A stretch of DNA of 64,000 nucleotides from Bacilli bacterium. Lineage in GTDB: Bacteria; Bacillota_I; Bacilli_A; ML615J-28; CAG-313. Each line of letters opens with the position of its first letter. The stretch's first letter is position 1. The position numbers were made by a program, and so were the translations under genes. The notes under the pieces are model-generated. The model saw only the letters and a list, made by a program, of their open reading frames with translations, did not search any database and was not told where the DNA came from. The DNA is taken from NCBI GenBank assembly GCA_017398545.1, contig JAFQFT010000013.1, positions 5,572 through 69,571 on the forward strand, written 5' to 3'. Below, one piece after another: positions 1 through 15,608 of the stretch.

Positions 1-610
1 TCAACTCTTTGTAATCAACATACAAACTTAAAGCATTTTCTTTTGTTAAACCACAATAATCAATTCCCCATAATTCGAATGCTACAGAAGGATCAAATAA
101 TTCATCCATTAACTTAATAAAGTTAGATGTATCCTTATAATTTACTTTAGTTATGCAATGTTTAATAACAATTTTAATACCATAATAATGAATGTTAAGT
201 AAACCATTAATTGATTTATTAAAACTACCTTTACTAAGGTTCTGTGATTCATGTGTTTCTGCACCGCTGCTATGAATAGTTGTTATTATTTGAAAACGAT
301 TTTTGTCAATATGTTTAGAAAGCTCATATGCAAATTTTATGTCGTAAAGTTTCTCAGCATTTGTTAAAATCGTTGTATAAATATTATTTTCTTTAAAGTA
401 ATCCAAAATATCAAAGATTTCATCGTGTAATAGAGGTTCTCCACCACTTAATGTAACATAAATACGCTCATTTTTATCAATGAAAGGTTTAATTTTGGTT
501 TTTATATCATCTAAAGATAACTTTTGTCCTTTAAATGAATTTTTACCACATGGACAACCTAAACACTTTTGATTACAACCATAAATTATTGCAAAATATA
601 AATTTACCAT
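1..610 (-). CDS. Radical SAM protein, partial (3' end lies beyond position 1; first 203 aa visible)
   Basis: I translated the minus strand from the ATG at 610: MVNLYFAIIYGCNQKCLGCPCGK...LSGGEPLLHDE.... It has a CX3CX2C motif (CNQKCLGC) near the N-terminus and a GGEPLL SAM-binding-type motif. The frame stays open to position 1. The ATG sits inside the stop region of the upstream gene (AAATGGTAA). It is absent from the supplied ORF track because it runs off the window. Confidence 0.75.
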   Translation of the reverse strand, partial: MVNLYFAIIYGCNQKCLGCPCGKNSFKGQKLSLDDIKTKIKPFIDKNERIYVTLSGGEPLLHDEIFDILDYFKENNIYTTILTNAEKLYDIKFAYELSKHIDKNRFQIITTIHSSGAETHESQNLSKGSFNKSINGLLNIHYYGIKIVIKHCITKVNYKDTSNFIKLMDELFDPSVAFELWGIDYCGLTKENALSLYVDYKEL

Positions 611-1158
611 TTTATTGCCTCCAAATACACTTGATTATTTATAAAAGACTTTTTGGTCAACGAATAAATGTATAAATCATAATACTCATCGTTATGTTTT
701 CGATAATCTTTCAATGTAGCTTCCTTTATAACACCTGGAAATTGCATTAAAGAAATTGAATTTTGATTATACGAATAAACCTCGAAAAATATTTTATTTA
801 GACTTAGTTTTTCGAATAAATGATTTAGATATAGAACTGCAGCTTCAACAGAGTATATTTTATTACGATATTCTTCACAAATGTAAATAGTTACAAAAGC
901 GTGAGAATCAATATTTCGAATATTATATGCAAATATAAATCCCATTCTCTTGTTTGAATTATTTTCATAGATTACATAAAACGAGCGATAATGACTTTTA
1001 AGCATTTCATTCATTTCTGTTTGAAACTCAAAATATGTTTGTTTACTGTTTTTGTTACTCCATAAATATAAATCATCTAAACAAAATTTTTCATAAATAA
1101 AATGATAGTCATCTCTATCTTTAATATAATTTAAATATAAATGTTTTCCTAAAATCAT
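604..1158 (-). CDS. GNAT-like (RimJ/RimL-type) acyl/acetyltransferase
   Basis: 184-aa ORF with SD AGAGGA 5 nt before the ATG. The C-terminal half (LNKIFFEVYSYNQNSISLMQFPGVIKEATLKDY) resembles the RimJ/RimL GNAT pattern. There is a 1-nt gap to the upstream gene and an overlap with the downstream rSAM gene. Confidence 0.5.
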   Translation of the reverse strand: MILGKHLYLNYIKDRDDYHFIYEKFCLDDLYLWSNKNSKQTYFEFQTEMNEMLKSHYRSFYVIYENNSNKRMGFIFAYNIRNIDSHAFVTIYICEEYRNKIYSVEAAVLYLNHLFEKLSLNKIFFEVYSYNQNSISLMQFPGVIKEATLKDYRKHNDEYYDLYIYSLTKKSFINNQVYLEAIKW

Positions 1159-1159
1159 A

Positions 1160-2512
1160 TTAGTCCTCTATTTTGATTTCACCTAATGATAATATTTCAA
1201 TAACTTTTTTATTAGTTAAAGCATATTCTATTAATTTAGGGTAAAGATATTCATTAATGCTACATTGCGTTTCGTCAATTTCTGTAAATGATTTTTTATA
1301 CGATATTATTGAAGCAGTGCATCCACCACGGCAATAAACATACCAAGGACATTTATCACATTTGAAATCATTTTTTTTCAAAAAGAAAGGATTGCTTTGA
1401 ATTGATTTCTCTAAAATATCAGTCAAATCACCATCTTGAATATTACCTATTTTAACAATTTCATTACCTACTAATTCACAAGGATAGATATTACCATCTC
1501 TGGAAAAAGTAATAAATTTATATCCACCTAAACATCCATTTGAATGACATAATTCACTATTCCATCCCTTAAATAAATTTATGATTCGATCATAAATATT
1601 CATATCTGTAATTGTATAACCTTCTTTATAGAGTTTTAATAAAATATTTATTAATCGTTCATAAAACATTGGAATATCTTTTTCTGTTAATACAGATTCC
1701 ATTGGAAAAACATCTGAATTAGGATGGACGAAATTTAACTTTATTTTTTTAATTTTTAAATCTTTAGCAAACGAAATAATGCTATCTTCTAAATAATCTA
1801 AGGACATCTTTGTAACTACAGAAATTGTTTGGACATTATATCCATTATACTTTTGAAGATTTTTTATCCCCTCAATAACTTTAAAATATGAGTCTTTCCC
1901 ATCAAAATATTTACGATGAATATTATGGATTTTTTCGTTACCATCAATACTTACTGCAACAGAAATTTTTCTATCATGCAACTCTTTAGCTATTTCCTGA
2001 GTAATTAAAGTTCCGTTAGTTTGAATAACAATCTCAGCCTTTATATTATTTTCTTTAAAGAAATCATCCATTTTTAGTATTTCTTTATATGCTAAAAAGG
2101 GCTCTCCACCCCATGGTTGAATCGTGATAGGTCTGTTGCCATTACTTTTTACATAATTTTTTATATAATCTAAAATTGCAAATAATTCATTTTCTTTAAT
2201 AACTGAACCACGTGAAATAAAATCTCTTAAACAATAATAGCATCCTAAATTGCAACAAGTAGAAAAATCAATCATAAAAAAAGAAATTTTTGGTTTTAAA
2301 GATCGAATTTCAAAGCGATCAGTTTTATAAAAAGAATTAAGTAAAAGTTTATATTTTAATTCCTCACAACATTTATCTTCAATTAAATCATCATACAATA
2401 CTTTTTCTAATATTAAACCATTTCCATTTTTTGATAATATAAATACTTTATCACATGATTTTTGTGAATAAATTATATTAAATTTTTCTATTTTATTATT
2501 CAAGAAAACCAC
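1160..2512 (-). CDS. Radical SAM peptide-modifying enzyme with C-terminal SPASM domain
   Basis: CX3CX2C motif (CNLGCYYC), a GGEPF motif, and the SPASM signature CX2CX5CX3C (CDKCPWYVYCRGGC) plus upstream Cys residues (CHSNGC...YPCE). The start is uncertain: GTG at 2512 or TTG at 2503, the latter with better SD spacing (GAAGGTGG-5nt-TTG). Confidence 0.85.
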   Translation of the reverse strand: MVFLNNKIEKFNIIYSQKSCDKVFILSKNGNGLILEKVLYDDLIEDKCCEELKYKLLLNSFYKTDRFEIRSLKPKISFFMIDFSTCCNLGCYYCLRDFISRGSVIKENELFAILDYIKNYVKSNGNRPITIQPWGGEPFLAYKEILKMDDFFKENNIKAEIVIQTNGTLITQEIAKELHDRKISVAVSIDGNEKIHNIHRKYFDGKDSYFKVIEGIKNLQKYNGYNVQTISVVTKMSLDYLEDSIISFAKDLKIKKIKLNFVHPNSDVFPMESVLTEKDIPMFYERLINILLKLYKEGYTITDMNIYDRIINLFKGWNSELCHSNGCLGGYKFITFSRDGNIYPCELVGNEIVKIGNIQDGDLTDILEKSIQSNPFFLKKNDFKCDKCPWYVYCRGGCTASIISYKKSFTEIDETQCSINEYLYPKLIEYALTNKKVIEILSLGEIKIED

Positions 2513-2744
2513 CTTCTTCTAATTTGTTATAAACATCATGTTCAGTTAATTTTTTTATTGTATCAATAGGTGACCCAATTAATAAAGAATTTAATAATAA
2601 ATTCAATTTATATCTATTTCCATTGATAATAAGTTCATTATTGTTTCTACAACATTTCAAAAATAAACTATCATTTTCTAAAGCATAAATCGTTGATGAT
2701 GATAATTTAATAGTATTTAAGTTATTTTTTTTTAGTACAACCAT
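2496..2744 (-). CDS. Small PqqD-like / RRE-type peptide-binding protein (tentative)
   Basis: 82 aa, sitting immediately upstream of the rSAM-SPASM gene and overlapping it by 17 nt. Its size and position are typical of PqqD-family chaperones. Sequence similarity is judged only loosely by eye. Confidence 0.4.
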   Translation of the reverse strand: MVVLKKNNLNTIKLSSSTIYALENDSLFLKCCRNNNELIINGNRYKLNLLLNSLLIGSPIDTIKKLTEHDVYNKLEEGGFLE

Positions 2745-2748
2745 AAGA

Positions 2749-3696
2749 TTACCTATTATCTTTCCATTTTCCTAGTTCGGGATAAAAACATTCCAAACCA
2801 TTCTCGCAATTTAATTTTTTTATTAGTTTAAATTTATTTAAATTAGCAATAAATTCATTTTTCGAATGGCTTTTCGCTGCTAATTCTCTTATTTCAAAAA
2901 TAGTTTTACAAACATATAATATAAAATCGACATCAAATTCTCTTCCCGTAATTTTAATAGAATTAACACCGATTTCTAAAAAATCATAAATAGCACAAAT
3001 TCCACATCCATAATTTAATAAAGAATTAGAATATACATCATGATTTTCATTATACAAATCAACATCCATATTTATATTCCATTTATTACTTAGAGAAAAC
3101 TTACACATTCCCCCGTTTTCAGTATGAAGGCAAAAGCAATTTCCATTTGAAAATCTGCAACCACTTAAAAAAACAAAACACTCAATTTCAATATTTAATT
3201 CAGTTCTAAATTTTTTAATTTCTTCATAAGAAACGTCTCTTGATAAAATTAATCTATCGACTTTATATCTTTTTATTAACGCTTTCACAGCAGAAATATT
3301 GTATAAAGCAAATATGGTTGATAAATAAATTTTAAGATTAAATTTATTAGCAATTTTTAAGATATTCAAATCACTAACAATAAATCCATCTCCACCCTCT
3401 CTTTCAAATTGTGACATTATTTTCTCAATACTTTGCAATTGTTCGTCACTATAAGAATGAGCATTACAAACCAAAAAGACTTCTTTTTTATTATTTTTTA
3501 TAATGTCAATTACTCTTTTTACATTATCAATATTCTTAAATGATGCTTTAGAACTAAATCCTCTCGAATGATAAGATAAAAAATTATCTTTTTGATCTTT
3601 CCAATCATCATTATTAAAGCTTAAATAAAATTCATCAGCATATTTAACTAATTCTTCTATTTTACTATCTTCATTTATTGGACAAAATATTTTCAT
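2749..3696 (-). CDS. Peptidase-U32-family protein (possible Fe-S enzyme rather than a protease)
   Basis: 315 aa. The Cys-rich segment IECFVFLSGCRFSNGNCFCLHTENGGMCKF resembles the U32 family signature as I remember it (E-x-F-x2-G-[SA]-x-C-x4-G-x-C). The N-terminal half is TIM-barrel-like (DGFIVSDLNILKIA). Confidence 0.6.
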   Translation of the reverse strand: MKIFCPINEDSKIEELVKYADEFYLSFNNDDWKDQKDNFLSYHSRGFSSKASFKNIDNVKRVIDIIKNNKKEVFLVCNAHSYSDEQLQSIEKIMSQFEREGGDGFIVSDLNILKIANKFNLKIYLSTIFALYNISAVKALIKRYKVDRLILSRDVSYEEIKKFRTELNIEIECFVFLSGCRFSNGNCFCLHTENGGMCKFSLSNKWNINMDVDLYNENHDVYSNSLLNYGCGICAIYDFLEIGVNSIKITGREFDVDFILYVCKTIFEIRELAAKSHSKNEFIANLNKFKLIKKLNCENGLECFYPELGKWKDNR

Positions 3697-3704
3697 AATA
3701 ACAT

Positions 3705-6035
3705 TTAACCCTCAATATACTTTAATATAATTTCAAAATCATCATTTTTAAGTAAATCAATTACCTTTTTGTCAAGTTTTCCTTGGTAATATAATGCATT
3801 CATATATTTATAAACTTTAATTTGATTATAATTTGTAGTTGAGCAATATTTTAAACATTCAAAGGAACAATTAACATTTTTAAACTTAGAAGCACACTTT
3901 TTATTAATTCCTGAAAATTCACAAATATTTCCACATGCCTCTAAAATATAAGGATAATTAATATATATTTTATTTAAACTTTGTGGTAATATAAAGTGTT
4001 CTGTTATGTGAGGTTCTAAAGTAACACTACGTATATTATGTTCTTCATAATACTTAAGATTTTCAGAACTAAAAACCCCAATACCTTCATTTGTTAGAAA
4101 AATATTTTTTGTTCTAAAATCACGGATTCTTTTGTCAAACAATCTTCCCAAAATAATATTTACTTTTTTAGAATAAAGTTCCATTATTCCATAATCATTA
4201 ACAATTAGATAATCAATTACTTTACGCTCAAGTAATTGATCAATAACTTGTACAAACTTTTGAAAATATTCTTCTCTAACATTTGGCACAATAAAATACG
4301 TTAAAAGATTTTTTTCTTTCGCCGATATATATTTTTTTATAAGTTTTTCTGCATTTATAGCATCAATAAATCTAGAACAAGTGCTTGAACCATAAATAAC
4401 ACCTTTAATATATGAATTATGTGGATTAATTAACTCAATACATAACTTCGAAATATTATCTAATGACATATCAATTACTGTAAATCGATCACTCAAATCA
4501 ACAATAATACCTTTTTTAAACATCAAAGATGTTTCCTTAGTCAAATAATTATTAACTAATTCCACAATATGCTGCACTTTATCCATTTTTTCAAAATCTT
4601 TATCGCTAAATGTAATATTATACTTTTTTTCTATTTCAACAATAATTAAAAAGAAATCCACTGATGTAATATTTAAATCATATTTCAGGTCGGAGTTATA
4701 AAGTACTTCAACATTAATATATTTTTCAATTAAAGTTTTAATTTCAGTAAATAGTTCATTTTTTACATCATTTCTTTGAACCTTGTGTGCATCTGAATAA
4801 ATTAAATCACCATAGATAATTTGAGTTATAAGATTAAAATTAGGAATCATACTTAATTGTTGAACATTTAATCTGCTTATCGAATCAATTTTTAAAAAGA
4901 GCTTATCGTTTTTTAAAAATAATAATGATCCTTTAACTCCATCAAACTCATTTACAACATTTTCAATTTGTTCAGGAAAAACTTTTAACCCATTTGGTAA
5001 AACAATTAATGTATCACTTCGTCCAAGTAACAATATTTTTTTATCATTTGTTAACATTCCTAAATCGTTAGATGAAAATAAAGGTTGAGTTAAAAAGTTA
5101 GGATAGTATCCTTTCATAACATTTTTACCTTCAACCGTAATTTCATTTTCTCTATTAATTGTTATATTTACGCCTTCGATTAACGAAATAACATTTAATT
5201 TACTAACATTATCAATTAAAGTTATCCCTATGCAGCCTGCTGTTTCTGTAGAACCATAACCGTTAAATAGTTGGAGATTTTTCTTTAAAACTTTATTCGC
5301 TAGTCGTTTAGAAATTTGAGCTCCTCCTACAAGAATTGTTTTCAAATTTAAGTTTTCAATACCATATTTTTCTAAAAAAATAAATAACTTTTCTAATAAT
5401 AACGGTGTTAAATTAATACATGTGGGATTGGCAATAGTAAAAGAATCAAACATTCTATTTACATCATTATTTACATATACTTTTGAACCACCAAAAATTG
5501 GTAAAAAATAATCAGCTATTAAGCCGAATACATGATGAATTGGAAGAATGCTTAAATATGAACATTTTTGATTACTTTTTAAAATTTTCCAACCCCCATT
5601 AACTGCAGCATACAAATTATTATTTGAAAGCATAACACCTTTTTTTTCTAAAGTTGTACCGGAAGTAAAAATAATTGTTGAAACGTTATCTTCATCTAAT
5701 TCTTTTTCTAACTTAAATTCAGTTTTTTCAAAACATTCTTGTAAAATGGAATTAAACTTTATATCATTAATTATTTCAACACAATTAATTAAATTATTTT
5801 GATCAGCAAAAACTGCTATATTATCAGTAAATATAATCGATAAGTATGCAGCAAAAAAATTTATCTTATCCTTAATTATTATGTTAAAATAACATCTATT
5901 ATATTTAGAAAAGTAATTGGATATTTTACTTACTAATGAAAAGAATTCACCATATGAATAATTAATATTTTCAGAACTAAAAAGAATTAGATTTTTATTA
6001 TTGTTAAAAGAATCAATTAAAGCATTCTTTAACAT
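3705..6035 (-). CDS. Tri-domain fusion: AMP-forming adenylation enzyme, acyl/peptidyl carrier domain and U32-like domain
   Basis: Adenylation motifs are TSGTTLEKKG (A3), NGYGSTETAG (A5) and SNDLG...GRSDTLIVLPNGLKVFPEQIE (A7/A8). A carrier-like helix with a Ser follows (LNITSVDFFLIIVEIEKKYNITF). The C-terminal ~270 aa are U32-like (IDYLIVNDYGIMELY...; Cys-rich EACGNICEF...CSFECLKYC). The ATG overlaps the precursor stop (TAATG). Confidence 0.7.
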   Translation of the reverse strand: MLKNALIDSFNNNKNLILFSSENINYSYGEFFSLVSKISNYFSKYNRCYFNIIIKDKINFFAAYLSIIFTDNIAVFADQNNLINCVEIINDIKFNSILQECFEKTEFKLEKELDEDNVSTIIFTSGTTLEKKGVMLSNNNLYAAVNGGWKILKSNQKCSYLSILPIHHVFGLIADYFLPIFGGSKVYVNNDVNRMFDSFTIANPTCINLTPLLLEKLFIFLEKYGIENLNLKTILVGGAQISKRLANKVLKKNLQLFNGYGSTETAGCIGITLIDNVSKLNVISLIEGVNITINRENEITVEGKNVMKGYYPNFLTQPLFSSNDLGMLTNDKKILLLGRSDTLIVLPNGLKVFPEQIENVVNEFDGVKGSLLFLKNDKLFLKIDSISRLNVQQLSMIPNFNLITQIIYGDLIYSDAHKVQRNDVKNELFTEIKTLIEKYINVEVLYNSDLKYDLNITSVDFFLIIVEIEKKYNITFSDKDFEKMDKVQHIVELVNNYLTKETSLMFKKGIIVDLSDRFTVIDMSLDNISKLCIELINPHNSYIKGVIYGSSTCSRFIDAINAEKLIKKYISAKEKNLLTYFIVPNVREEYFQKFVQVIDQLLERKVIDYLIVNDYGIMELYSKKVNIILGRLFDKRIRDFRTKNIFLTNEGIGVFSSENLKYYEEHNIRSVTLEPHITEHFILPQSLNKIYINYPYILEACGNICEFSGINKKCASKFKNVNCSFECLKYCSTTNYNQIKVYKYMNALYYQGKLDKKVIDLLKNDDFEIILKYIEG

Positions 6036-6325
6036 TATTTGCTACTTCCACCTGCACTCCAACTTGTACTATTAGACCAGTATGTCCCACCTGCACTCCA
6101 TTTAGTACTATTAGACCAGTATGTCCCACCTGCACTCCATTTAGTACTATTTGACCAATATGTTCCACCTGCACTCCACGGAGTACTATTTGACCAATAT
6201 GTTCCACCTGCGCTCCATCTTGTGCTATTTGACCAATATGAACTTTGATCATTATTATTTGAAATAGATAAATCGTTACCAAAACATAATACACAATTTA
6301 ATTTTTTAGAATAAACCTTAATCAT
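6035..6325 (-). CDS. Candidate RiPP precursor peptide: ~28-aa leader plus five 13-aa repeats (T/S)YWSNST-x-WSAGG
   Basis: Strong SD (AAGGAGTG, 7 nt before the ATG) and a consensus-like promoter upstream. It is the first gene of the rSAM operon. Sequence: MIKVYSKKLNCVLCFGNDLSISNNNDQS-SYWSNSTRWSAGG-TYWSNSTPWSAGG-TYWSNSTKWSAGG-TYWSNSTKWSAGG-TYWSNSTSWSAGG-SSK. Nucleotide differences between repeats are almost all synonymous in this frame. Confidence 0.75.
   Translation of the reverse strand: MIKVYSKKLNCVLCFGNDLSISNNNDQSSYWSNSTRWSAGGTYWSNSTPWSAGGTYWSNSTKWSAGGTYWSNSTKWSAGGTYWSNSTSWSAGGSSK
6048..6242 (-). repeat. Five tandem 39-bp repeats (unit starts 6048, 6087, 6126, 6165, 6204) encoding the peptide core units
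   Basis: Direct reading of the plus strand gives ccacctgc(a/g)ctcca-nnn-(a/t)gt(a/g)ctat(t/a)(a/t)gacca(g/a)tatg... repeated five times with an exact 39-bp period. Confidence 0.95.
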
Positions 6326-6351
6326 AATTTCACTCCTTTTATATTTTTATT

Positions 6352-6380
6352 ATTTTATCACAATGAAAATAATTAGTCAA
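6352..6380 (-). promoter_or_regulatory. Sigma-A-type promoter of the peptide operon
   Basis: The minus strand reads TTGACT (6380-6375), a 17-nt spacer, then TAAAAT (6357-6352). It lies ~27 nt upstream of the precursor ATG region, ahead of SD AAGGAGTG. Confidence 0.6.
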
Positions 6381-6485
6381 GAAAAATTGTAAAATTTTGT
6401 GGTATTTATGTAAGATATTTTTACAATATTTTATTATTTTTCTCTTTATGATTAAAAAAGTCAAAAATTATTTATATATAAAAAA

Positions 6486-6515
6486 ACCTCTCTTATAGGA
6501 TACTATTAGAGGGGT
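6486..6515. terminator. Bidirectional rho-independent terminator
   Basis: 13-bp stem (one mismatch, one G-U pair) with loop GATA, flanked by an A-run (6481-6486) and a T-run (6515-6520). It lies just downstream of the acyltransferase gene on the minus strand. Confidence 0.7.
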
Positions 6516-6597
6516 TTTTTCTTAAGATATTTTATTAAATCATAAATTAATACAAATAAAAAAATTTAATAAATAATATAATGTTTAATCATAGTTT

Positions 6598-7515
6598 TTA
6601 GTAATTAATAGTAGTTAACTTTTCTTGTTTTTCTATATCGTTTTTAACTTGTTTAAAAATAAATCTCAATAACAATGTCAACAACGATAAACCTAATATA
6701 ATTACAAAAATTACATTTCGATTCGATAAATTAAAAAATTTAATAAATAATCTTGGAACAAGTTGATATGCATAAAGTCCAAAACTAAGTGAACCCAAAA
6801 AATTAAATATCGAAAAATTAAATTTCAATAAAAATGTGAAATAAATTAATGATGGATATAAAATGATGAAAGCAAGCTGTATTAATAGTTTATCACCTGA
6901 ATACATCAAAAATAAAATTGTTAAAGAAAATAAAACAAAAACTAATACCCAATTTAAAATTTTATTAATTTTTAGTTTTGGTATATAACCTATTAATACT
7001 CCTAATGGTAACGCTGCTGCACCTCTAACAAACCCAACATGTTCACACCCAAGATTTCTTAAAACAGTAAATATTAATACCCAACATATTAAAAACATAA
7101 TAAAGTGTTTTTCTCTTTTAAAAAATTTTTTTAAAATAATAAGAATTAAACATGTATAAATCATTTGTTTGACATACCATAAGTAACTCCATAAATTAAG
7201 AGTAAGTTCGTCATTCAAAATAAGACTAATTATACAATAAATTATATTAAAAGATATTCCTACAAATAAAGGTAGGCCTAATTTTAATACTTTCTTTTTA
7301 AAGAATAAAATAATTGCTTCTCTAAAATTCATATCATGTACTTTTTCTAAAAATCCGATAAATAAATAACCAGTTAAAATAAAGAAAAATTCAACACAGA
7401 TAAAACCAGATGAAAAGTAAGGACCACCATATATAAACATTGAATGACTTTTTACAACGATTAAAGATAATATAAATCTATATAATTCAATTAAACTATT
7501 TTTCTTCATACTCAA
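6598..7515 (-). CDS. Integral membrane acyltransferase (acyltransferase_3 / OafA-like family)
   Basis: 305 aa and polytopic. The N-terminal LIELYRFILSLIVVKSHS resembles the conserved start of acyltransferase-3 proteins (R...H motif). Confidence 0.5.
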   Translation of the reverse strand: MSMKKNSLIELYRFILSLIVVKSHSMFIYGGPYFSSGFICVEFFFILTGYLFIGFLEKVHDMNFREAIILFFKKKVLKLGLPLFVGISFNIIYCIISLILNDELTLNLWSYLWYVKQMIYTCLILIILKKFFKREKHFIMFLICWVLIFTVLRNLGCEHVGFVRGAAALPLGVLIGYIPKLKINKILNWVLVFVLFSLTILFLMYSGDKLLIQLAFIILYPSLIYFTFLLKFNFSIFNFLGSLSFGLYAYQLVPRLFIKFFNLSNRNVIFVIILGLSLLTLLLRFIFKQVKNDIEKQEKLTTINY

Positions 7516-7521
7516 ATTTTA

Positions 7522-10500
7522 TTAACGCATACCTTCTATTAACATTAGAATTTCTTCACGTGTTATATATCCTTTACCTACGACAATTGATAAATATCGG
7601 CCATTTAATGCAATAAATTCTTCATATGAAACATAGTCTTGCCATTCTTCATATGTATATAATCCATATTGTGCTATATCTGATTCCATTTTCTCTTTAT
7701 CATATTTATAATCATCGCCAAATTCAAAATATGTTAAAAAGCCAGGAATATCTTCAATTGTTAATGTTAAAAAGCCTTCTACAATAACATTATCGTTGCA
7801 AGCACTTCTTAGAGAATAACACGAACTCCATTTGTATTCTGCAATTCCTGAAACCAATTCTACAGTTTCTATTGTTCCTTCTTCTCCTACCACAGCAAAA
7901 TGATGTCCTAAATATTCAACGTAATTTTCATGATTGATAAAAACATATTTATTAAGCGTGGCATCAAAGAAACCATGTTCAGTTACAACATTTAAAGACT
8001 TTCCATTAGAAAATTCAAGCGTAATTACGTTATATAAACCTTCTCCGTGATTCCAAAATAATGAAATAGGCATTGCTTCTATAGTTCCTGTAAATGCATT
8101 CCACGAAAGAACTAAATCACCAGGTTTCAAACTATCAAGTCTTGCATAAGATCCGTCATCAAGAGCAACAAGTGTATCACCAGTAAAACAGCCATTAGTA
8201 GACCAAGTAACAGTATAAGTTATAGTTTGTTTAGTTATATTATCAGTTATTTTTAACCAAGCATTTCCTGTTTTATCATCTTCCTCTTTATAAACTCTTA
8301 AAAACTCACCGTCATATGTCGCTTTTGCTCCTGAATCTGAACCACATTCATATTTATACGAACCAGAACCACCAGATACAGTTACCATTCTTTTTTCTAC
8401 TTCACTTATACTTGAGAAATCATCATCTTCGTAGTTAGTTGTACTATAACCTAAAGGGTTATACCAAGCACTATTAATCACTTGATCAAATTCAGTAACT
8501 TTTGCTACATAAATTTTACTTTCACTTAGTAATTGATCACCACAAGACCAACCTTTAAACGTATAATCATTATTTGGATCATTACTACTCTTATAAGTTG
8601 CTGAATATTCATAAGTTATTATGCAATCATTACAACTTATCGAATTTGCTTTAACAAGTTGAATTGTTGCATTTCCATAAACGCTTCCTGAATAGATAGT
8701 CATTTTACCAGAACCTATAAAATTAAGCTTAGATTCAGCTCCAGATAAATTTATAATATTACCACAGGTAACGGATGGAGAAATTGAACTTTCACCTAAA
8801 ACATTAATAGTTAAATTTATTCCATTAGTATTATATAAAGATATTGCTTCACTTTCATTAGTTATAAAATTAAAGTTATCAAACGTTAATGTAAGATTTT
8901 GTGAACTTGTATAACTACATAAATACATTCTAAAATTTATAAATGTTCTATCTTTATTACCGATAAATATGACTTCTTCTGAATACCCAGCTACTATATC
9001 TATATTGTTATACCTATTGTTTACTACACTTCTATTAGTGTGTTTTGTTAAATCTATTTCTGATTCATGACGCCAATCTATTATTGTTTTTTTATAAAGT
9101 GGATTCCAAGGAGTGCTATCAATAGTATTATATATCATATACGAATCAGTCTTAAGAGTGTTTTCAACAATTGTCCCAGTTGTGACATATTGACTAATTT
9201 CACGTGTGTTTATTTCCCAAATCGCATATAAAGTAATATTCTCTTTAGAAGTTAATCCAGATATATCATCAACATTTGTAAAACAAATTTCACTATCTGG
9301 GTTTAAAGACCAACCTTTAAAGTTCATTCCTTCAATGAAAAATGCATTATTAGTTAAAGTATATGACTTAAAATAATCACAATCTTGCATAGGAGAAATA
9401 TTTCCACCCTTTGAGCCTATATAATTAATTGTATAAGCAAAACTTGGATAGTTTGCTTCAAAATAGATATCATATAAACTTTTAACGTCAAATGAAATAT
9501 TTTCAATTACTTTTTCAAACTTTATATCAAAATACATAAATGAAACTTTAACCTCTGTTACACAACTTTTATTATTACAATTTAAATTAAAAAGTACTGT
9601 ATTATTTCCATTAGCATCAACTAAATTATGAACATCACCATATTCACTATTAATGCTAAATACTAGTGAAAAATCGTGTAAATTATATAAGCTATTTAAC
9701 GTTAAATATTCATCGTTTTCAGCTATCAATTTCCAAATTTCATCAATAGTATAAATTTTATTATTTTCAATGTAATCTAATTTAAAACTAATCTCATCAA
9801 TTTGATTCATTATTAATTGCATTGAATTATTTTTACTATCAATATCATTAGTAAATTTTGTATTCTCACTACAAATTATATCTATATTCTCACAAAAATC
9901 TATTATAAATTTCATATTATCATATGAATAAAAATTTTTAGAATTTTGTAAATATAGAGTCTTTTTCACTGTTGATGTGTTGAAACCTAATTCAGTTAAA
10001 AAGTTTTCGCTCAATAAAGAACCTTGTAAATTTACATTTTGTAACATTAGTTTATTTAATCCTATACAAAGAGAATCTTTTCGTAAATCCATATTTCTAA
10101 GATTCAAATTTTTTAAGCTATTTAATGAAGAAACATTTAAAGAACTTAAGTTAACTTTATCTAATTTTAACGTACTTAAATTGTTTAAACTACTTAATAC
10201 AATATTTTTTACTGTACTATTAATAACTTCTATACTATCAACATTCGAATTCTTGACTAAAATTGAATCAGTATCAATAGAGTTTAGTTTTATATTTTCT
10301 AGTTTATCACCTGAAGTATTACAATCAATAATAGATAAATCTTTAAAATTATATTTAGTGATTTCAAGCCAACCAATTGTACTATTTTCTAATTTTATGG
10401 TATTAAAATCATTAAAATTAATAAGTGACACATCTTTCAATGAAGTAGTTCCTTTAAAAGACATTGAAGTTATCAAATTATTAATATTTTCGTATAATTG

Positions 10501-13500
10501 ACTTTCAAATGCCCCTGTTCCAACTTTAAGTGTCGTTAAAGCTTTTGTTCCATCTAATGTTAATGTGTCCATAATCGGATAATTTACATATAATTCTTTC
10601 ATTGATTCAAGATTTTTGATAGCATCATTATTTTCTTTATTTAAAACGTTTAGTTTTACAATTCTTAATGAATTTTCACCACTAATATTAAGTTTATAAT
10701 TCAAAGCATTAACTGTTAAATTTACTAATTTCTTATTACTAGTTAAACTTGTATTTGATTCTCCATCTATAATTAAACTTTCAATTGAAGTGTTGCTTAA
10801 ACTTAAATTCTTAATTTGTGAATTAATAATTAATTTTTTGCAACCTAAAGTATTATTTAACACAAGCTCTTCCATATCATCTGAAATATTAAGTTCATTA
10901 AATAAAGTAATACCATCCAAAGTCATTTTCTTAATATTTTCTAATGAAATATCAACATTAATATTATTACCACTACCATATATTTTTAGTTCATCAATTG
11001 ATTCCACACCAAAAGTTGATAGATTTTCTAAGCACGATAAATTTTTAATTATTAAAGACTTTAGTGTTGTAGTGCCAACAAGATTAATTACACTTATACT
11101 CTTATTCCCACCTTCTTCAAGATATGCCTCAATTCTTACATTTTCTAAAGGATTGTTACATAATTGAATATCTTTTACTGTAGAAGGTAATGGTTTATAT
11201 ACTCCATTTTCATCATAATAAGAAATAAAATTATTAATATTATTATTATTTAATATTATTGTTTCTAATCCATTCATCTTTTGAACTAGCATTCCAATTA
11301 TTGCATCATATAATGAATATTTAGTATTAGTTTCTTCATCTAAAAATTTACTATTTACATCTAATGTAATACCAATATTTTCTAAATTCAATTTTTTAAT
11401 TATTGAAGCATTAACACTTAATTTGTCTATAAATTTGTATAAAATTTCTTCACTACTTATTGTACTTTGTTCTTTTTTATGAACCTCAAATTTTAGTTCA
11501 CTGATTTCACAATTATTTAAAGTAATAGGATTAAATAGAATTTCTTCATTTATTGTAATCGTAACTTTTATATTTCCATCATTTATAACATGCACATTTT
11601 CAAATGTTATAGTTGTAAGTTTTTCTAATGCTGGAATTTCTAAATCACTAAATTCGATATTTTTCAATATTAAAGTTTTTAAAGATTGTAATCCATTTAA
11701 TTTTAGTTCTCTTAAACCTCCATTTTCTCCTATAATTTCAACAGAGGCTAAGTATATTGAATCTGTAAGGTTAATAGTTTCAAGATTAAATAAATTAGTA
11801 TTGTTAAATTTAATTTCTGAAAATTTATTTCCACTAATATCTAACGTAGTAATACTTTTATTTAACTTTAAAATATTTTCTAAGAATTCGATGTGTTCTG
11901 ATTCATTATATAGATTATTTAAACCATTGAATGGTAGTGATAACGTTTTATTTATTTTAGTATTAGAATAATTAAAGTTTTCTTTAGTTTTAAATATAGT
12001 AGCAACAGGGTTATATTTATCATCAGTTTCAAGTTTTTCAATAATTAAATCATCAATATTACAATTTGTTAAATTAAATACTTTTAAGGCAGGACATGAA
12101 GATAAATTTAACTTACCTATCATACATTCATCAATTAATAAACTATTTGCATCATTATCAAATGAATTTTTAATTGTTAAATTATTAAAATCACATTTTT
12201 TAATACTTATATTATTAATTAATACATTATCAATACTTAATAAATTATTTAAGAATGAAGTATTTATTATTTCAAGATTTTTAATATTAGGAAAATTATT
12301 TAAATCAAGTGAAACATTAACTGCATTTTTCAATAATAATGTATTAACATTTGAATACTTAGAACCAAGTATCGATTTAATTGCATTACTACTAACATTA
12401 TTTTCATTAAGAAGTTCAATTTTAATTGTTTCTAATAAATCGCAATTGTCTAAGATCATTTCTTGTAAATTTAAATATTTGTCAGTAAAAATAAATTCAA
12501 CAATAGTATTTCCAGTTAAATCAATAGTCTTTTCAATATTAAATTTGTCTAATACTTTTGTCTCAGAAATATCACAGTTTTTTAATGTTAGATAATCTAC
12601 ATCAATATTATTAATTCTATCATACCAAGAGTTTTGATTAATACCATTAAAACTTAAAGTCATAACTTTGCTTGGAAAAACAAAACTATTTAAATCTATC
12701 GATTTTAATGTTGATGAAGAAATTGATAACTCTTTAAACTCTTCTTTTTGACTATAATCTCCAATTATAGTATCAATATTAGTATCATTTAAAGAAAGCT
12801 TATTTAATTTTTCAAATGAACTTAAATCTAAAATATTATCTACAAATGTAGTATTTGAAGCTTGAAGCGATTTTAATGTAGGTCTTGCATTTGATTCATC
12901 ATTCATAAGATCAAAATTTGTTAAATCATTAATAATTAATTCATTAATTCTAAATATATCTGTTGATAATTTTGTAACATCAGTACCTGAAATATTTAAA
13001 CTGTTAATATTAATGATTTGAAAACTATATTCTATATCATTAATCATTCCTTTAAATTCACTATTAATAATTTCATCACTTAAATTTGTGTTGGTAAAGT
13101 TAAATCTTTCAGTTGAAGTTCCATTGTAATATATTTTTAGAGATTGAAAATCAACACCTACTGCATTTATATCAATATTACTTCCTCTAATTAGTTCAAA
13201 TATTTTTGTATGATTTGTAACATTGATTATACAATTTCCTACATCATATATTACAAGAGAATTACTTGGAATAATAACTTCAGTTTGATTTTTATCATTA
13301 TAAAATGCTCTACTTGAACTATTATCGAAATTCACAGAATTTATAATCGAACTGCTATATACTCCACCATCAATTATAATGTTACTAGAATCAATATCCA
13401 AATAACTTAAATTAAATTTACTATTTTCAGCATTATCAAATACTGAAATATTTAAGTCAAGATTCCCTACGTTAATATTCTCTCTATATGAAGAAGTTAT

Positions 13501-15594
13501 ATTGAATGTAACATTGTTATAAATATTTAAATTAACATTTTGTAAACGATTAACTGAAATATCTACATTTGCAATTTCAGAATTTGAAATATTAATACCC
13601 AACCCATCAGATTGTCCTAAAAAGTTATTGTCAATATAAATACCATTTGGTAAATCTTTAACATCTTTAAAAATAGAATTTTTAACAACTTTAAAATTAT
13701 CAGCAACTATATTTTTCAATTCAATATTATTCCCTGAATCTAATGATGAACAATTTGTAATTATTGCTTTTCCTATTTCTAATCCTTCTAAACTAATATG
13801 TTGTAAAGATTCACATTTATCTATATTTAACGTTGGTAAAAATACAATTGTTTCTTGAACATTCTTTATAGATAATCCAGTTAAATTTGCAACATTTATA
13901 ATTTCTAAGCTTTCTAGTTGACCAATTTCATCAAAAATAATTTCATTATTTCCATCAATAGTTAATTCCTCTAATATTATGTTATTTGCATAAGAAGCAC
14001 TCGCAGAAATTACCTTGTTATTCGTATTACTTAATTCAGCTTTTTTAATTTTTAATTCTTTAATAGTTGTACTAGCATCATTAGGTCTAGTTAAAATACC
14101 ATTAAATAGAGAAACAACAGCTTCATTATCTGATAATTTAGAACGAATATTTTCTATAGTAATAGACTCGTAAGATTTATTAGCTAAACGTATTGTATCA
14201 AAATCATTTAATAACATATCGCCTTTTAAAGTAATATGCTCTAACAAGCTTAGATTTTCAAGATTTAATTCACTTCCTCTAAAACTAGTAATTGAAAGTT
14301 TTTTTAGTTTTGTTAAATCATCACTAAATTGATTATTTTCATCAAGGTAACTTTTACTATTTACATTGTCAAATTCAATTTCTTCAATTAAAGACTCATT
14401 ATCTGATGTAATTTTTAAAGACTCTAGATAGCTTAAATTTCTACATATTAGTTTAGTAAAACTATTATTATTTAAGGTAATTGTTTTAATAGAATTAAAC
14501 TCATTACCTACATTAATAGCATCATTAATTTCTAAGCATTCCACTTTTTTAATGTTTGAAAGTATAAGAGTTTTTAATCCTTCTAAGTTTTCTATATTAA
14601 TTTTATTTTCACTATTATTAGTAAAACTAATATTATTTAAATTTAATACAGAAAGATTAGCAGAAGCATTATTTATGAATGATGAAAATTCTTTAGCTGA
14701 TTTAAAGTTTCCACTTAAAAATAGTTCTTCTAACCCCTTCATGTTATTAAGATTTAATTCTTGAATTAAACTATTACCATTAGTAGCATTTATAGTTAAT
14801 TTTTTTAAGTTAGGAAGATAATTAAAGTCTGTATAACTATTAAATGTTTCCTTTTGAAGATTTAATTCCTTAATACTTGCTAAATCATTTCTGTATAACT
14901 GACCATCACTTAATTTTTTTCTTATTTCTGCTTCTATTTCAGAATCATTACACTTAACTGTAAATGCTTGGTTTTCAAGGAAAACATCAGCGTTTTGAGT
15001 TGACTTAATCGTGATATTTCCCTTACCAATACCAGTAGTTAAATATAACCCTTTATTTTCACCATCATTTATTAGTTCAAAACATTTAAAATCAGAAATT
15101 AATTCAAAATCATCAGTTTCTGACCACTGATCAGGTTCAGCATCAATTTCAAATTTATAAAATTGACCTAATTTTAGATTTTGTAAATCTTCAGGATTAG
15201 TAATTTTATTAATACTAATAATTCCAGTAGAAACTTTAAATTCAATAGTTATACTTTTTTTAGAATTATTAAAAGTACCTTCCTTTAATTGAATAATTGC
15301 TTTTGACGTTCCCTTACCAATAGCTGTAAAATAACCTGAATCATATTTAATACATGTGTCATTTTCTAACTTTACAATTACACTTTCTTCAATAATTTGT
15401 TGAGTATCTTTATTATTAAAAAATTTAACAGACTTTACATTAATTAAACTTTCTAAAGAAACACTATTACCTACATATAAAGTTTGTGTTTCTGTTATCG
15501 GTTCTATTGTGGTTGAACTTAAACCAAAGTATAATCCACAAAGGCCTCCTATTAAGAGCGCAAATACTATTAACGCAATTATTAATTTACGCAT
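7522..15594 (-). CDS. Giant (2690 aa) surface protein: N-terminal anchor/signal, Big_2-like domains, long leucine-rich-repeat arrays, Listeria-Bacteroides-type repeats and a C-terminal Hint domain
   Basis: The N-terminus MRKLIIALIVFALLIGGLCGLYFG is hydrophobic. There are many LxxLxLxxN LRR units (e.g. LPNLKKLTINA, LEELFLSGN, LKTLILSNI). FKGWSLNP...ITLYAIWE is a Flg_new-like repeat. The C-terminus has CFTGDTLV...VVTEHGFF. Confidence 0.85.
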   Translation of the reverse strand: MRKLIIALIVFALLIGGLCGLYFGLSSTTIEPITETQTLYVGNSVSLESLINVKSVKFFNNKDTQQIIEESVIVKLENDTCIKYDSGYFTAIGKGTSKAIIQLKEGTFNNSKKSITIEFKVSTGIISINKITNPEDLQNLKLGQFYKFEIDAEPDQWSETDDFELISDFKCFELINDGENKGLYLTTGIGKGNITIKSTQNADVFLENQAFTVKCNDSEIEAEIRKKLSDGQLYRNDLASIKELNLQKETFNSYTDFNYLPNLKKLTINATNGNSLIQELNLNNMKGLEELFLSGNFKSAKEFSSFINNASANLSVLNLNNISFTNNSENKINIENLEGLKTLILSNIKKVECLEINDAINVGNEFNSIKTITLNNNSFTKLICRNLSYLESLKITSDNESLIEEIEFDNVNSKSYLDENNQFSDDLTKLKKLSITSFRGSELNLENLSLLEHITLKGDMLLNDFDTIRLANKSYESITIENIRSKLSDNEAVVSLFNGILTRPNDASTTIKELKIKKAELSNTNNKVISASASYANNIILEELTIDGNNEIIFDEIGQLESLEIINVANLTGLSIKNVQETIVFLPTLNIDKCESLQHISLEGLEIGKAIITNCSSLDSGNNIELKNIVADNFKVVKNSIFKDVKDLPNGIYIDNNFLGQSDGLGINISNSEIANVDISVNRLQNVNLNIYNNVTFNITSSYRENINVGNLDLNISVFDNAENSKFNLSYLDIDSSNIIIDGGVYSSSIINSVNFDNSSSRAFYNDKNQTEVIIPSNSLVIYDVGNCIINVTNHTKIFELIRGSNIDINAVGVDFQSLKIYYNGTSTERFNFTNTNLSDEIINSEFKGMINDIEYSFQIININSLNISGTDVTKLSTDIFRINELIINDLTNFDLMNDESNARPTLKSLQASNTTFVDNILDLSSFEKLNKLSLNDTNIDTIIGDYSQKEEFKELSISSSTLKSIDLNSFVFPSKVMTLSFNGINQNSWYDRINNIDVDYLTLKNCDISETKVLDKFNIEKTIDLTGNTIVEFIFTDKYLNLQEMILDNCDLLETIKIELLNENNVSSNAIKSILGSKYSNVNTLLLKNAVNVSLDLNNFPNIKNLEIINTSFLNNLLSIDNVLINNISIKKCDFNNLTIKNSFDNDANSLLIDECMIGKLNLSSCPALKVFNLTNCNIDDLIIEKLETDDKYNPVATIFKTKENFNYSNTKINKTLSLPFNGLNNLYNESEHIEFLENILKLNKSITTLDISGNKFSEIKFNNTNLFNLETINLTDSIYLASVEIIGENGGLRELKLNGLQSLKTLILKNIEFSDLEIPALEKLTTITFENVHVINDGNIKVTITINEEILFNPITLNNCEISELKFEVHKKEQSTISSEEILYKFIDKLSVNASIIKKLNLENIGITLDVNSKFLDEETNTKYSLYDAIIGMLVQKMNGLETIILNNNNINNFISYYDENGVYKPLPSTVKDIQLCNNPLENVRIEAYLEEGGNKSISVINLVGTTTLKSLIIKNLSCLENLSTFGVESIDELKIYGSGNNINVDISLENIKKMTLDGITLFNELNISDDMEELVLNNTLGCKKLIINSQIKNLSLSNTSIESLIIDGESNTSLTSNKKLVNLTVNALNYKLNISGENSLRIVKLNVLNKENNDAIKNLESMKELYVNYPIMDTLTLDGTKALTTLKVGTGAFESQLYENINNLITSMSFKGTTSLKDVSLINFNDFNTIKLENSTIGWLEITKYNFKDLSIIDCNTSGDKLENIKLNSIDTDSILVKNSNVDSIEVINSTVKNIVLSSLNNLSTLKLDKVNLSSLNVSSLNSLKNLNLRNMDLRKDSLCIGLNKLMLQNVNLQGSLLSENFLTELGFNTSTVKKTLYLQNSKNFYSYDNMKFIIDFCENIDIICSENTKFTNDIDSKNNSMQLIMNQIDEISFKLDYIENNKIYTIDEIWKLIAENDEYLTLNSLYNLHDFSLVFSINSEYGDVHNLVDANGNNTVLFNLNCNNKSCVTEVKVSFMYFDIKFEKVIENISFDVKSLYDIYFEANYPSFAYTINYIGSKGGNISPMQDCDYFKSYTLTNNAFFIEGMNFKGWSLNPDSEICFTNVDDISGLTSKENITLYAIWEINTREISQYVTTGTIVENTLKTDSYMIYNTIDSTPWNPLYKKTIIDWRHESEIDLTKHTNRSVVNNRYNNIDIVAGYSEEVIFIGNKDRTFINFRMYLCSYTSSQNLTLTFDNFNFITNESEAISLYNTNGINLTINVLGESSISPSVTCGNIINLSGAESKLNFIGSGKMTIYSGSVYGNATIQLVKANSISCNDCIITYEYSATYKSSNDPNNDYTFKGWSCGDQLLSESKIYVAKVTEFDQVINSAWYNPLGYSTTNYEDDDFSSISEVEKRMVTVSGGSGSYKYECGSDSGAKATYDGEFLRVYKEEDDKTGNAWLKITDNITKQTITYTVTWSTNGCFTGDTLVALDDGSYARLDSLKPGDLVLSWNAFTGTIEAMPISLFWNHGEGLYNVITLEFSNGKSLNVVTEHGFFDATLNKYVFINHENYVEYLGHHFAVVGEEGTIETVELVSGIAEYKWSSCYSLRSACNDNVIVEGFLTLTIEDIPGFLTYFEFGDDYKYDKEKMESDIAQYGLYTYEEWQDYVSYEEFIALNGRYLSIVVGKGYITREEILMLIEGMR
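7768..8190 (-). other. Hint (Hedgehog/intein-like) autoprocessing domain within the 2690-aa protein
   Basis: Block A is NG-CFTGDTLVALDDG, with the Cys codon TGT at 8190-8188. Block B is the TxxH motif LNVVTEHGFFD. A C-terminal block SACNDNVIVEGFL is followed by an 81-aa acidic tail (7525-7767). Confidence 0.7.
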
Positions 15595-15608
15595 AATTGA
15601 TACCTACT

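Follow-up and report, generated by a model that had tools for sequence, protein, structure and literature searches.

A probable peptide-maturation operon of an unnamed family, with paired radical SAM enzymes and a Trp-rich repeat peptide, in a Bacilli bacterium

What is made by an operon that places two radical S-adenosylmethionine (SAM) enzymes behind a short Trp-rich repeat peptide, and in which no protein, either here or in its relatives, attains any curated NCBIfam cut-off? The question is raised by positions 1 to 6,380 of a 64,000-nucleotide stretch of DNA from a Bacilli bacterium (assembly GCA_017398545.1, contig JAFQFT010000013.1; hereafter, the window), where seven closely coupled open reading frames (ORFs) on the minus strand encode a 96-aa peptide, a 776-aa fusion protein, a 315-aa U32 protein, an 82-aa protein, a 450-aa radical SAM-SPASM enzyme, a 184-aa GNAT protein, and the first part of a second radical SAM enzyme. 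A preliminary description had read these genes as an operon that matures a peptide synthesized ribosomally and modified after translation (RiPP) but belongs to no named RiPP class, and our analysis supports that reading. We regard the locus as a RiPP-type maturation operon of an unnamed family that acts on a Trp-rich repeat peptide by the mechanism proposed below, with a probability of about 70%. The system is a variant of radical SAM-dependent RiPP maturation with an unusual combination of enzymes and an informative kinship to HXS, an anti-phage system shown in 2026, in which HxsB and HxsC mature HxsA (PMC13128918).

The peptide, its relatives, and the conserved core

The first gene of the operon contains a 39-bp unit in 4.9 copies and encodes a 29-aa leader followed by five repeats. 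The core has no Cys and the whole precursor no His; no Pfam or NCBIfam domain matches it, and it has no HxS repeats, peptidoglycan-binding domain, or signal peptide. Every repeat holds W-x-N and W-x-A, both of which are aromatic-X-X motifs of the kind used to define triceptides. Two related loci, L005 (GC-rich) and L007, have an equivalent small ORF with YWSNST(x)W(S/T)xG(S/T) repeats that ends in GGSK or SGGK. Their enzymes are only 41 to 46% identical to those of the window, yet the YWSNST repeats are shared. Sequence comparison thus identifies the 96-aa ORF as a true precursor gene.

A pattern scan of one genome per species recovered 53 loci, including those of Lachnospiraceae, Ruminococcus sp. 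YE282, Phascolarctobacterium, many Bacteroidales, Endomicrobia, Calditrichia, and a Methanomethylophilaceae archaeon. A strict W[ST]N[ST][ST] repeat pattern missed most of the related peptides, and detection required a hidden Markov model (HMM) of the leader, built from nine peptides, which finds a precursor in ~40 loci (leader consensus MKK(V/I)xVFS(K/E)KLG). A peptide with an xVFSKKLG leader and a Trp/Asn/Gly-rich core, in which W-x-N is the most frequent motif, is encoded in approximately 45 related loci from Bacillota, Bacteroidota, Endomicrobia, Calditrichia, and one archaeon. Homologous clusters do keep an adjacent, Trp-rich, and often repetitive peptide, which the preliminary description had set as a test of its claim, with a conserved leader and, in L005 and L007, the YWSNST unit itself.

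The cores are uniformly rich in Trp, Asn, and Gly but diverse between lineages. Examples are NRAWESWMNNGWNNWGAICN in Bacteroidales, GWTNSGWSKSGGWKKPTAIQ in Lachnospiraceae, VGWSHGGWNNDGGGAGW in Ruminococcus, and repeats of SWTNGGWTNGGKDGG in Phascolarctobacterium, and the cores of the remaining loci include WTAWDAW-type arrays. Among dereplicated cores, the strongest positional preference is for the second residue after Trp, which is Asn in 41%, Ala in 18%, and Asp in 12%. The preliminary description considered thioethers unlikely and Trp/Tyr-centered cross-links more plausible, and the preference for W-x-N across the family is consistent with Trp-centered cross-links.

Some substrates are of protein size. 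Those of L037 (12231-12896), L044 (2739-3404), L042 (5307-5945), and L038 (2539-3438), from some Erysipelotrichaceae and Clostridia, are 212 to 299 aa long; after the leader come five SWxDKGWNNSSG repeats, then a Gly run, and finally a ~100-aa helical domain (GGGC(Y/F)ITTA...DDCxEL...LRxYRD) with no Pfam match. The substrates of L048 (10983-11465; uncultured Staphylococcaceae) and L051 (11981-12589; a Bacilli metagenome-assembled genome [MAG]) lack the FSKKLG leader and begin with an array of SWVxxGWxNNSD repeats that is followed by hydrophobic segments. With transmembrane helices judged by eye, these two look like membrane-anchored Trp-repeat proteins.

Besides this peptide, the invariant core of the family includes a small protein with the fold of a RiPP recognition element (RRE), a radical SAM-SPASM enzyme, and a second, HxsC-like radical SAM enzyme. 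Comparison of 34 homologues of the SPASM enzyme shows no variation in C87x3C91x2C94 or C385x2C388x5C394x3C398, so that CX3CX2C and 7 to 8 SPASM Cys residues are invariant. The family is discrete: its ~40 close relatives, nearly all metagenomic, score 241 to 473 bits, after which scores drop abruptly to 120 bits. Against NCBIfam models, the window enzyme scored as follows (bits/cut-off): anaerobic sulfatase-maturing enzyme (anSME), 129/349 (TIGR03942; PRK13758, 122/441); PapB, 129/340; DynA, 128/450; HxsB, 116/370 (TIGR03978; 104 to 126 bits in relatives); SCIFF, 114/425; YhhB, 111/445; GrrM/OscB, 105/310; DarW, 83/650; AmcB, 77/425; and DarE, 70/650. FxsB was not among the 25 families listed for this enzyme and reached 57 to 61/370 in relatives, and PqqE was absent from the 25 best of the 65 matching families. 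The PqqE and mycofactocin models scored far below their cut-offs (PqqE, 27/381 for the second radical SAM enzyme). Membership in the anSME, sactipeptide, ranthipeptide, PQQ, mycofactocin, and known cyclophane-synthase families was rejected on the basis of these curated cut-offs. The SPASM enzyme is thus in neither anSME nor another characterized family, and the preliminary description, whose claim would have fallen had it been in a characterized non-RiPP family such as anSME, passes this test.

The second radical SAM enzyme has no SPASM domain. Completed to 308 aa on a public contig, it scored 110 bits against HxsC (TIGR03977; cut-off, 267.9) and 65 bits against the next-best family. In addition to CX3CX2C, it has four conserved Cys residues past the window edge (C233, C276, C279, and C285), which probably bind an auxiliary cluster. 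The genes for the two radical SAM enzymes are adjacent or fused in 52 of 53 genome loci. A Lachnospiraceae MAG (L045, 8924-11218) has a fusion in which the second enzyme precedes the SPASM enzyme, and the Methanomethylophilaceae archaeon (L052, 9914-12220) has one in the reverse order; these fused proteins are 764 to 768 aa long, and a 769-aa relative (P0028) is found among the close homologues. That fusion has taken place twice independently, in opposite orders, strongly suggests that the two enzymes function as a physical pair. It is this second radical SAM enzyme, rather than the U32, adenylation, or GNAT proteins, that is the conserved partner, a point overlooked in the preliminary description.

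The 82-aa protein had been called PqqD-like, a label that holds for the fold and not for the sequence. The protein and its 26 relatives have no match in Pfam, NCBIfam (E ≤ 1, including HxsD), or PDB sequences, and assignment by sequence to PqqD (PF05402) or HxsD was rejected because none of the 27 family members matched either. An AlphaFold2 (AF2) model made from 14 sequences (pLDDT, 85) has the topology b1b2b3-a1a2a3, and its top Foldseek matches in the PDB are dominated by RRE and peptide-clamp domains (TM score, ~0.6; best E value, 2.7e-3), including the ThcOx RRE, TbiB1 with leader, the PbtF RRE, SuiB, LynD/TruD, MccB, and McbB. According to this model, the protein is a discrete RRE by fold, with a putative role in leader recognition. 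In 38 loci, a homologous small protein of ~90 aa is encoded immediately upstream of the SPASM gene. A weak profile match to the 82-aa protein (probability, 78%) is also given by the first 78 residues of the SPASM enzyme, which may thus carry an RRE of its own.

Accessory enzymes and a proposed maturation route

The remaining components are accessory and confined to subsets of the loci: the U32 protein (7 of ~50 loci), the U32-like domain, the adenylation-carrier module (a minority of loci), and the GNAT protein (9 loci). Relatives also have accessory genes of RiPP type, whose products are aminopeptidases of the M42 and C1-like types, an ABC ATPase, extra radical SAM enzymes, and an FkbM methyltransferase. 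Among the domains that had been proposed for the window operon, HMM searches recovered radical SAM, SPASM, Peptidase_U32, AMP-binding, and GNAT above threshold and PP-binding below it, whereas PqqD was not found.

The 315-aa U32 protein falls outside the named subfamilies (UbiU, 58/440 bits; TrhP, 47/534 bits), and seven Cys residues are invariant among its 7 orthologues. The U32 proteins UbiU/V, TrhP, and RlhA contain Fe-S clusters and have been implicated in the hydroxylation of aromatic rings, among them that of a phenol, in a prephenate-dependent reaction that does not need O2; most U32 subfamilies are uncharacterized (PMC10990095).

The 776-aa protein had been described as an adenylation-carrier-U32 fusion. 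Its adenylation domain is clearly recognized by Pfam, and the best NCBIfam match of this domain is MenE (150 bits; cut-off, 330). The carrier reading of the weak PP-binding match that follows is supported by L005, where a stand-alone adenylation domain, a 79-aa PP-binding-like protein (19.8 bits), the GNAT protein, and an ACPS-type phosphopantetheinyl transferase (PPTase) are encoded by separate adjacent genes. The U32 part of the description holds only at the level of fold and profile. The C-terminal 278 aa and their 67 homologues have no Pfam match, U32 included, and PDB profile searches found no match for this domain; the true U32 protein likewise has none in the PDB by sequence. An exhaustive HMMER search found 176 representatives of its family, most of them proteins of 270 to 290 aa that stand alone, with invariant C55, C207, C225, and C229 (domain numbering) and a GRxFDKRxRDxR motif, and the domain is homologous to the C-terminal half of the 581- and 598-aa proteins of L005 and L007 (28 to 33% identity). 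Aligned by hhalign with the U32 proteins of the clusters, it gave an E value of 1e-4 and a probability of 57%. Its AF2 model (pLDDT, 91) has as best PDB match 5d88 (E value, 5e-4; TM score, 0.44/0.48), the only U32 structure among the top 50 PDB matches listed, the remainder being generic TIM barrels. Assignment as a distant U32-like domain is thus moderately supported by the model and the profiles.

A separate domain of ~300 aa, with an invariant NNGCxxxCxxC...C motif, forms the N-terminal half of the 581- to 598-aa proteins and stands alone in Blautia and Lachnospiraceae loci (L005, 5069-6814; L007, 3725-5521; L018, 11277-12272; L023, 11348-12268; L058, 8529-10289). It has no Pfam match and a weak U32 profile match (E value, 5e-4; probability, 32%). 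It does not occur in the window, where the adenylation-carrier module holds its place in the fusion protein.

Two accessory functions co-vary with features of the core peptide. The dipeptide YW is present in the core of all seven loci with both the U32 protein and the U32-like domain (the window, L005, L007, L022, L032, L047, and L049, in two separate clades of a neighbor-joining tree) and in 1 of 31 others, a difference with a Fisher P value of 6e-7, or 9e-6 after dereplication, in both cases ignoring phylogeny. The contexts of the dipeptide are YWSNST, GYWNRD/DYWNRSW, GYWNNGG, GYWSDT, and GYWDNG. Similarly, a C terminus of Gly or Ser followed by Lys is found in all six GNAT loci with short precursors and in none of 21 others (P = 3e-6, again ignoring phylogeny). 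This co-variation is our main ground for linking the U32 pair to the Tyr and, with less confidence, the GNAT protein to the terminal Lys.

In the mechanism that we propose, the RRE protein, and probably the SPASM enzyme through its N-terminal domain as well, would bind the leader (xVYSKKLN) and so present the core to the two radical SAM enzymes acting as a physical pair. The SPASM enzyme would most likely make cross-links from Trp to a side chain on W-x-N and W-x-A, yielding three-residue cyclophanes of the darobactin, dynobactin, or triceptide type, each with a mass change of -2 Da. The HxsC-like enzyme would use the RRE protein, by analogy with HxsC and HxsD, and add a second radical modification. 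In the window subtype, an Fe-S pair resembling UbiU/UbiV, made up of the U32 protein and the U32-like domain, may modify the Tyr of the YW dipeptide, most likely by O2-independent aromatic hydroxylation. Finally, the adenylation-carrier module would load a carboxylic acid and the GNAT protein would transfer it to the peptide, with the C-terminal Lys as the likeliest acceptor. We infer the chemistry of the radical SAM, U32, and acylation steps from the enzyme families and co-variation described above.

Several observations weigh against this reading or parts of it. Sequence scores put the SPASM enzyme at much the same distance from anSME, PapB, DynA, and HxsB, so that cyclophane formation is not singled out, and in the peptides the spacing between Trp residues ranges from 3 to 7 residues with no fixed residue at the second position after Trp. 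The PP-binding match on the fusion protein (17.3 bits) lies under the Pfam cut-off of 20.8, and the profile and structural scores behind the U32-like assignment are modest. Direct in vitro hydroxylase activity has so far been shown for no U32 protein (PMC10990095). One locus without U32, L040, has the YW dipeptide, although it lies near the end of a 13-kb contig, and the GNAT loci L038 and L042 have precursors of 212 to 299 aa that do not end in Lys. The co-occurrence statistics take no account of phylogeny, the neighbor-joining tree is not bootstrapped, and the ORFs in the related loci were called within this analysis. Lastly, the missing protease and exporter genes (see below) would also fit a product that is not secreted.

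A more ambitious version of this reading, that the operon represents a new maturation class of anaerobes in which paired radical SAM cousins of HXS cross-link Trp repeats, a U32 pair hydroxylates Tyr in a prephenate-dependent manner, and the C-terminal Lys is acylated, is offered tentatively, and as a whole we consider it doubtful. If peptide Tyr hydroxylation is true, it would give the U32 family its first peptide substrate. The window subtype is a genetically clean test case for O2-independent peptide hydroxylation by U32 Fe-S proteins. Members of the operon family are frequent among gut and rumen anaerobes and extend to a methanogen-related archaeon, yet the family has no name, curated model, or structure, and would thus constitute an uncharted class of microbiome peptides. 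Within the freely searchable literature, RiPP atlases excluded, we located no paper on the family by its peptide motifs, by U32 proteins with RiPPs, or by Trp-rich radical SAM peptides, and it may be mentioned elsewhere without a name. Two cultured strains, Blautia caecimuris DSM 29492 (Lachnospiraceae) and Ruminococcus sp. YE282, have relatives of the cluster and make the predictions directly testable.

Operon layout and genomic surroundings

The features of the operon are listed in Table 1. The seven ORFs and their coupled junctions, as first described, are borne out by coordinates and junction sequences. The peptide gene and the 776-aa gene (3705-6035) have one base in common, in the TAATG at 6035. 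Gaps of 8 nt and 4 nt separate the 776-aa gene from the U32 gene and the U32 gene from the 82-aa gene. The 82-aa gene overlaps the GTG start of the SPASM gene by 17 nt (2496-2512); public gene calls place this start 3 codons later, which gives a protein of 447 aa and an overlap of 8 nt. The SPASM and GNAT genes are 1 nt apart, and the GNAT gene overlaps the last radical SAM gene by 7 nt (604-610).

Table 1. Features of the operon and its 5' boundary, with the basis of each assignment
Feature	Position in the window	Strand	Basis
Second radical SAM enzyme, N-terminal 203 aa of 308, HxsC-like, non-SPASM	1..610	-	Radical_SAM Pfam; HxsC best family
GNAT acyltransferase, 184 aa	604..1158	-	Acetyltransf_3, 34.7 bits (cut-off, 25.4)
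Radical SAM-SPASM peptide maturase, 450 aa (447 aa with alternative start)	1160..2512	-	Radical_SAM and SPASM Pfam
Discrete RRE-fold protein (predicted), 82 aa	2496..2744	-	AF2 model and Foldseek
U32-family Fe-S protein, 315 aa, UbiU/TrhP-like	2749..3696	-	PF01136, 104 bits (cut-off, 22.4)
Distant U32-like TIM-barrel domain (predicted), aa 499-776 of 776-aa protein	3708..4541	-	Fold and profile comparison
Probable carrier (PP-binding) domain, aa 432-493 of 776-aa protein	4557..4742	-	PF00550, 17.3 bits
Adenylation (ANL/acyl-AMP ligase) domain, aa 1 to ~400 of 776-aa protein	4836..6035	-	PF00501, 112 bits
Precursor peptide, 96 aa; leader MIKVYSKKLN..., core 5 x YWSNSTxWSAGG(T), end GGSSK	6035..6325	-	39-bp unit; conserved leader
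Putative sigma-70 promoter TTGACT-17-TAAAAT, extended -10 TG	6352..6380	-	Position between upstream terminator and Shine-Dalgarno sequence
Intrinsic terminator of upstream acyltransferase gene, 5' operon boundary	6480..6521	-	Hairpin dG -16.1 kcal/mol, z -5.5, then U7

The ATG of the peptide gene is preceded by a Shine-Dalgarno sequence, AAAGGAG. The promoter-like site farther upstream is the sole one in the region with an extended -10 TG. In this DNA of 25% GC, promoter-like matches occur at chance frequency (66 found; 68 expected), so that the site is credible by position only; it is a plausible operon promoter, though not a statistically distinctive one. Rfam and tRNA scans of the window gave no matches.

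At its other end, the operon had been expected to continue past position 1, where a protease and an exporter might be found, and this expectation was not borne out. Public metagenome scaffolds of 104 to 145 kb, labeled MAG: Bacilli bacterium, carry the identical sequence. On the public contig, only the remainder of the second radical SAM gene follows, and then a strong bidirectional terminator, an oppositely oriented ISL3 transposase gene (L001, 11674-12816), and unrelated genes. The terminator and the ISL3 element end the cluster, and the operon therefore consists of seven genes, none of which encodes a protease or exporter in the window or on the public contig. RiPP pathways may draw on host peptidases (PMC9055067), and the missing protease is therefore no objection to a RiPP product.

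Mobile genes lie beside the cluster in three unrelated hosts: the ISL3 transposase gene at the window operon, resolvase genes in L005 (15698-16314), and a serine recombinase and an rve integrase gene that flank the cluster in L007 (1-1795). This suggests that the cluster spreads horizontally, in keeping with its presence in an archaeon (L052).

Several neighboring features were noted in passing. The operon promoter adjoins, on its upstream side, a membrane acyltransferase gene (6598-7515, minus strand; Acyl_transf_3, 40.5 bits) with its own terminator; this gene was not found in related loci and is counted outside the operon. Directly upstream of it, positions 7522-15594 (minus strand) encode a 2,690-aa protein with leucine-rich-repeat-like arrays, a C-terminal Hint (intein-like) domain, and a short tail, a layout typical of polymorphic toxins or surface proteins; its precomputed Pfam matches are Flg_new and Hint, both weak. 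Two further giant ORFs follow, at 15609-18734 (1,041 aa) and 18715-25920 (minus strand; 2,401 aa). Past the IS element, L001 has genes for a flavin reductase, a dCTP-deaminase-like protein, and a 302-aa radical SAM protein in a row (13630-16025), which may be a separate small pathway. A second public contig (L002, 1-1888), with the same gene set and an identical GNAT protein, has the 776-aa fusion gene called as two ORFs, one of 194 aa and one of 395 aa that is truncated where the contig ends, which reflects either a frameshift or assembly error or gene decay in the population.

Alternatives and comparison with known systems

The most serious rival explanation takes the kinship to HXS further. 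HxsA has five HxS repeats, acquires +8 Da on an SHRSS motif, and is matured to block phage DNA entry; HxsC binds the small protein HxsD; and 99.7% of HXS systems, with the gene order D-B-C-A, are in Pseudomonadota (PMC13128918). The window family and HXS have four parts in common, namely, a small protein, a radical SAM-SPASM enzyme, a non-SPASM radical SAM enzyme whose best family is HxsC, and a short tandem-repeat substrate, and in most relatives these are encoded in the order small protein, SPASM enzyme, second radical SAM enzyme, substrate. The window departs from this order, with the peptide first and the GNAT gene between the two radical SAM genes. HXS is therefore the nearest known architecture, which had escaped the preliminary description, and by analogy the small protein probably works with the HxsC-like enzyme.

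It could be argued from these parallels that the operon is itself an HXS-like defense or cell envelope system, in which the paired radical SAM enzymes mature a Trp-repeat effector that stays with the cell. The four-part architecture and gene order, the place of HxsB among the top matches of the SPASM enzyme, and the short-repeat array of the substrate would all fit, as would the protein-sized substrates with a helical domain (L037 and L042) or with apparent transmembrane segments by eye (L048 and L051), the fact that the window operon encodes neither an exporter nor a protease, and the recombinase and transposase neighbors in the window contig, L005, and L007. However, every HXS cut-off is missed widely and HxsD has no match at all, and the peptide lacks HxS repeats, a peptidoglycan-binding domain, and a signal peptide. 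The hosts are not the Pseudomonadota in which HXS is nearly confined, PADLOC defense models match only as generic viperin-type radical SAM proteins, and phage and plasmid collections contain no family members, only distant SCIFF-type maturases (~104 bits). Furthermore, many relatives have the aminopeptidases and ABC components typical of RiPP clusters. On balance, we consider a cell-associated effector of this kind unlikely.

We treat the family instead as a sister architecture of HXS, its closest known relative, and not as a member, because the membership tests of the components (HxsB, HxsC, HxsD, and HxsA) fail and because substrate and hosts differ. The HxsB and HxsC cut-offs are missed; the substrate is a Trp-repeat peptide of leader and core, whereas HxsA is a peptidoglycan-binding protein of 214 aa that has HxS repeats; the family is hosted by gut anaerobes (Bacillota, Bacteroidota, Endomicrobia, and an archaeon) rather than Pseudomonadota; and the window subtype adds U32, adenylation-carrier, and GNAT genes. 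If RiPP biosynthesis is linked to HXS in this way, the poorly understood HxsB/HxsC pair would gain a second, very different class of substrate.

A different kind of product, a peptide-derived redox cofactor, is suggested by PQQ and mycofactocin, whose biosynthetic logic is that of a radical SAM-SPASM enzyme, an RRE, and a small peptide. Units cross-linked by the radical SAM enzymes and hydroxylated anaerobically on the Tyr or Trp ring would then be excised as a quinone-type molecule, five per precursor, with the U32 pair in the role of PqqB and housekeeping peptidases performing the excision. The window operon resembles PqqA/D/E in its small peptide, discrete RRE protein, and radical SAM-SPASM enzyme, and in the ring hydroxylation that would come later. 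Several identical cores in one precursor would multiply the yield, quinone biosynthesis includes anaerobic ring hydroxylations to which the U32 family has been tied, U32 genes co-vary with Tyr beside Trp, and no dedicated protease or exporter is encoded. Against this, U32 genes are present in just 7 of ~50 loci and hence lie outside the core function, and the cores vary strongly between lineages, unlike cofactor precursors. The PqqE and mycofactocin models remain far under their cut-offs, there is no PqqD match, no Glu/Tyr motif in the peptide, and no PqqB or PqqC gene, no conserved cognate dehydrogenase lies nearby, and the acylation module would have no role. We therefore regard a cofactor as very improbable.

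A non-peptide system, in which the repeat ORF would be fortuitous and the enzymes would act on a carrier-tethered small molecule or the SPASM enzyme would mature a sulfatase-like protein, has in its favor anSME as nominal top NCBIfam match (129 bits) and an adenylation-carrier module that, with the PPTase of L005, is typical of thiotemplated pathways, but it is essentially excluded by an anSME score that is far under the cut-off of 349 and level with several RiPP maturases, by a repeat ORF that has a Shine-Dalgarno sequence and heads the operon, by the conservation of leader and Trp-rich core across phyla and from ~25% GC to the GC-rich L005, by the absence of the adenylation-carrier module from most loci, and by the conservation of an RRE-fold protein.

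Among RiPP classes proper, sactipeptides and ranthipeptides were rejected on the basis of the Cys-free core and of the PapB (129/340) and SCIFF (114/425) scores. The preferred reading of the operon, as the maturation system of a Trp-rich RiPP, finds parallels among the triceptides, darobactin, and dynobactin (XncB, OscB/GrrM, YhhB, HaaB, HtkB, DarE, and DynA), with which it shares a radical SAM-SPASM enzyme and repeated aromatic-X-X motifs. The darobactin core is WNWSKSF, and the W-x-N, W-x-K, and W-x-A units of the family resemble both this core and HAA-type motifs. Triceptide synthases act on aromatic-X-X motifs, those with Ala at X3 included (PMC11499958), and in dynobactin Trp and Asn are joined by a C-C bond (PMC10288494). 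DynA scores among the best NCBIfam matches (128 to 139 bits) but stays under its cut-off of 450, as YhhB, GrrM/OscB, AmcB, and DarE stay under theirs, and an obligatory second radical SAM enzyme and a discrete RRE protein are not features of the triceptide and daropeptide systems.

For the accessory enzymes, the comparison is with UbiU and UbiV. As in that pair, a U32 protein (here of 315 aa) is accompanied by a more divergent, putatively U32-like partner with four invariant Cys residues, and the likely substrate, a Tyr phenol, would be chemically near the phenolic substrate of UbiU/V. In contrast to UbiU, UbiV, TrhP, and RlhA, the partner domain goes unseen by Pfam and is fused to an adenylation-carrier module; no peptide substrate for any U32 protein has been reported in the searchable literature.

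GNAT-dependent acylation of RiPPs occurs in goadvionin (GdvG) and in the selidamides, where the acceptors are Lys or ornithine side chains. The window operon resembles these systems, by their description, in having a GNAT protein together with an acyl-loading and carrier function in a RiPP cluster. It differs from them in the putative donor, which here would be a MenE-like ligase that shares one polypeptide with a carrier and a U32-like domain.

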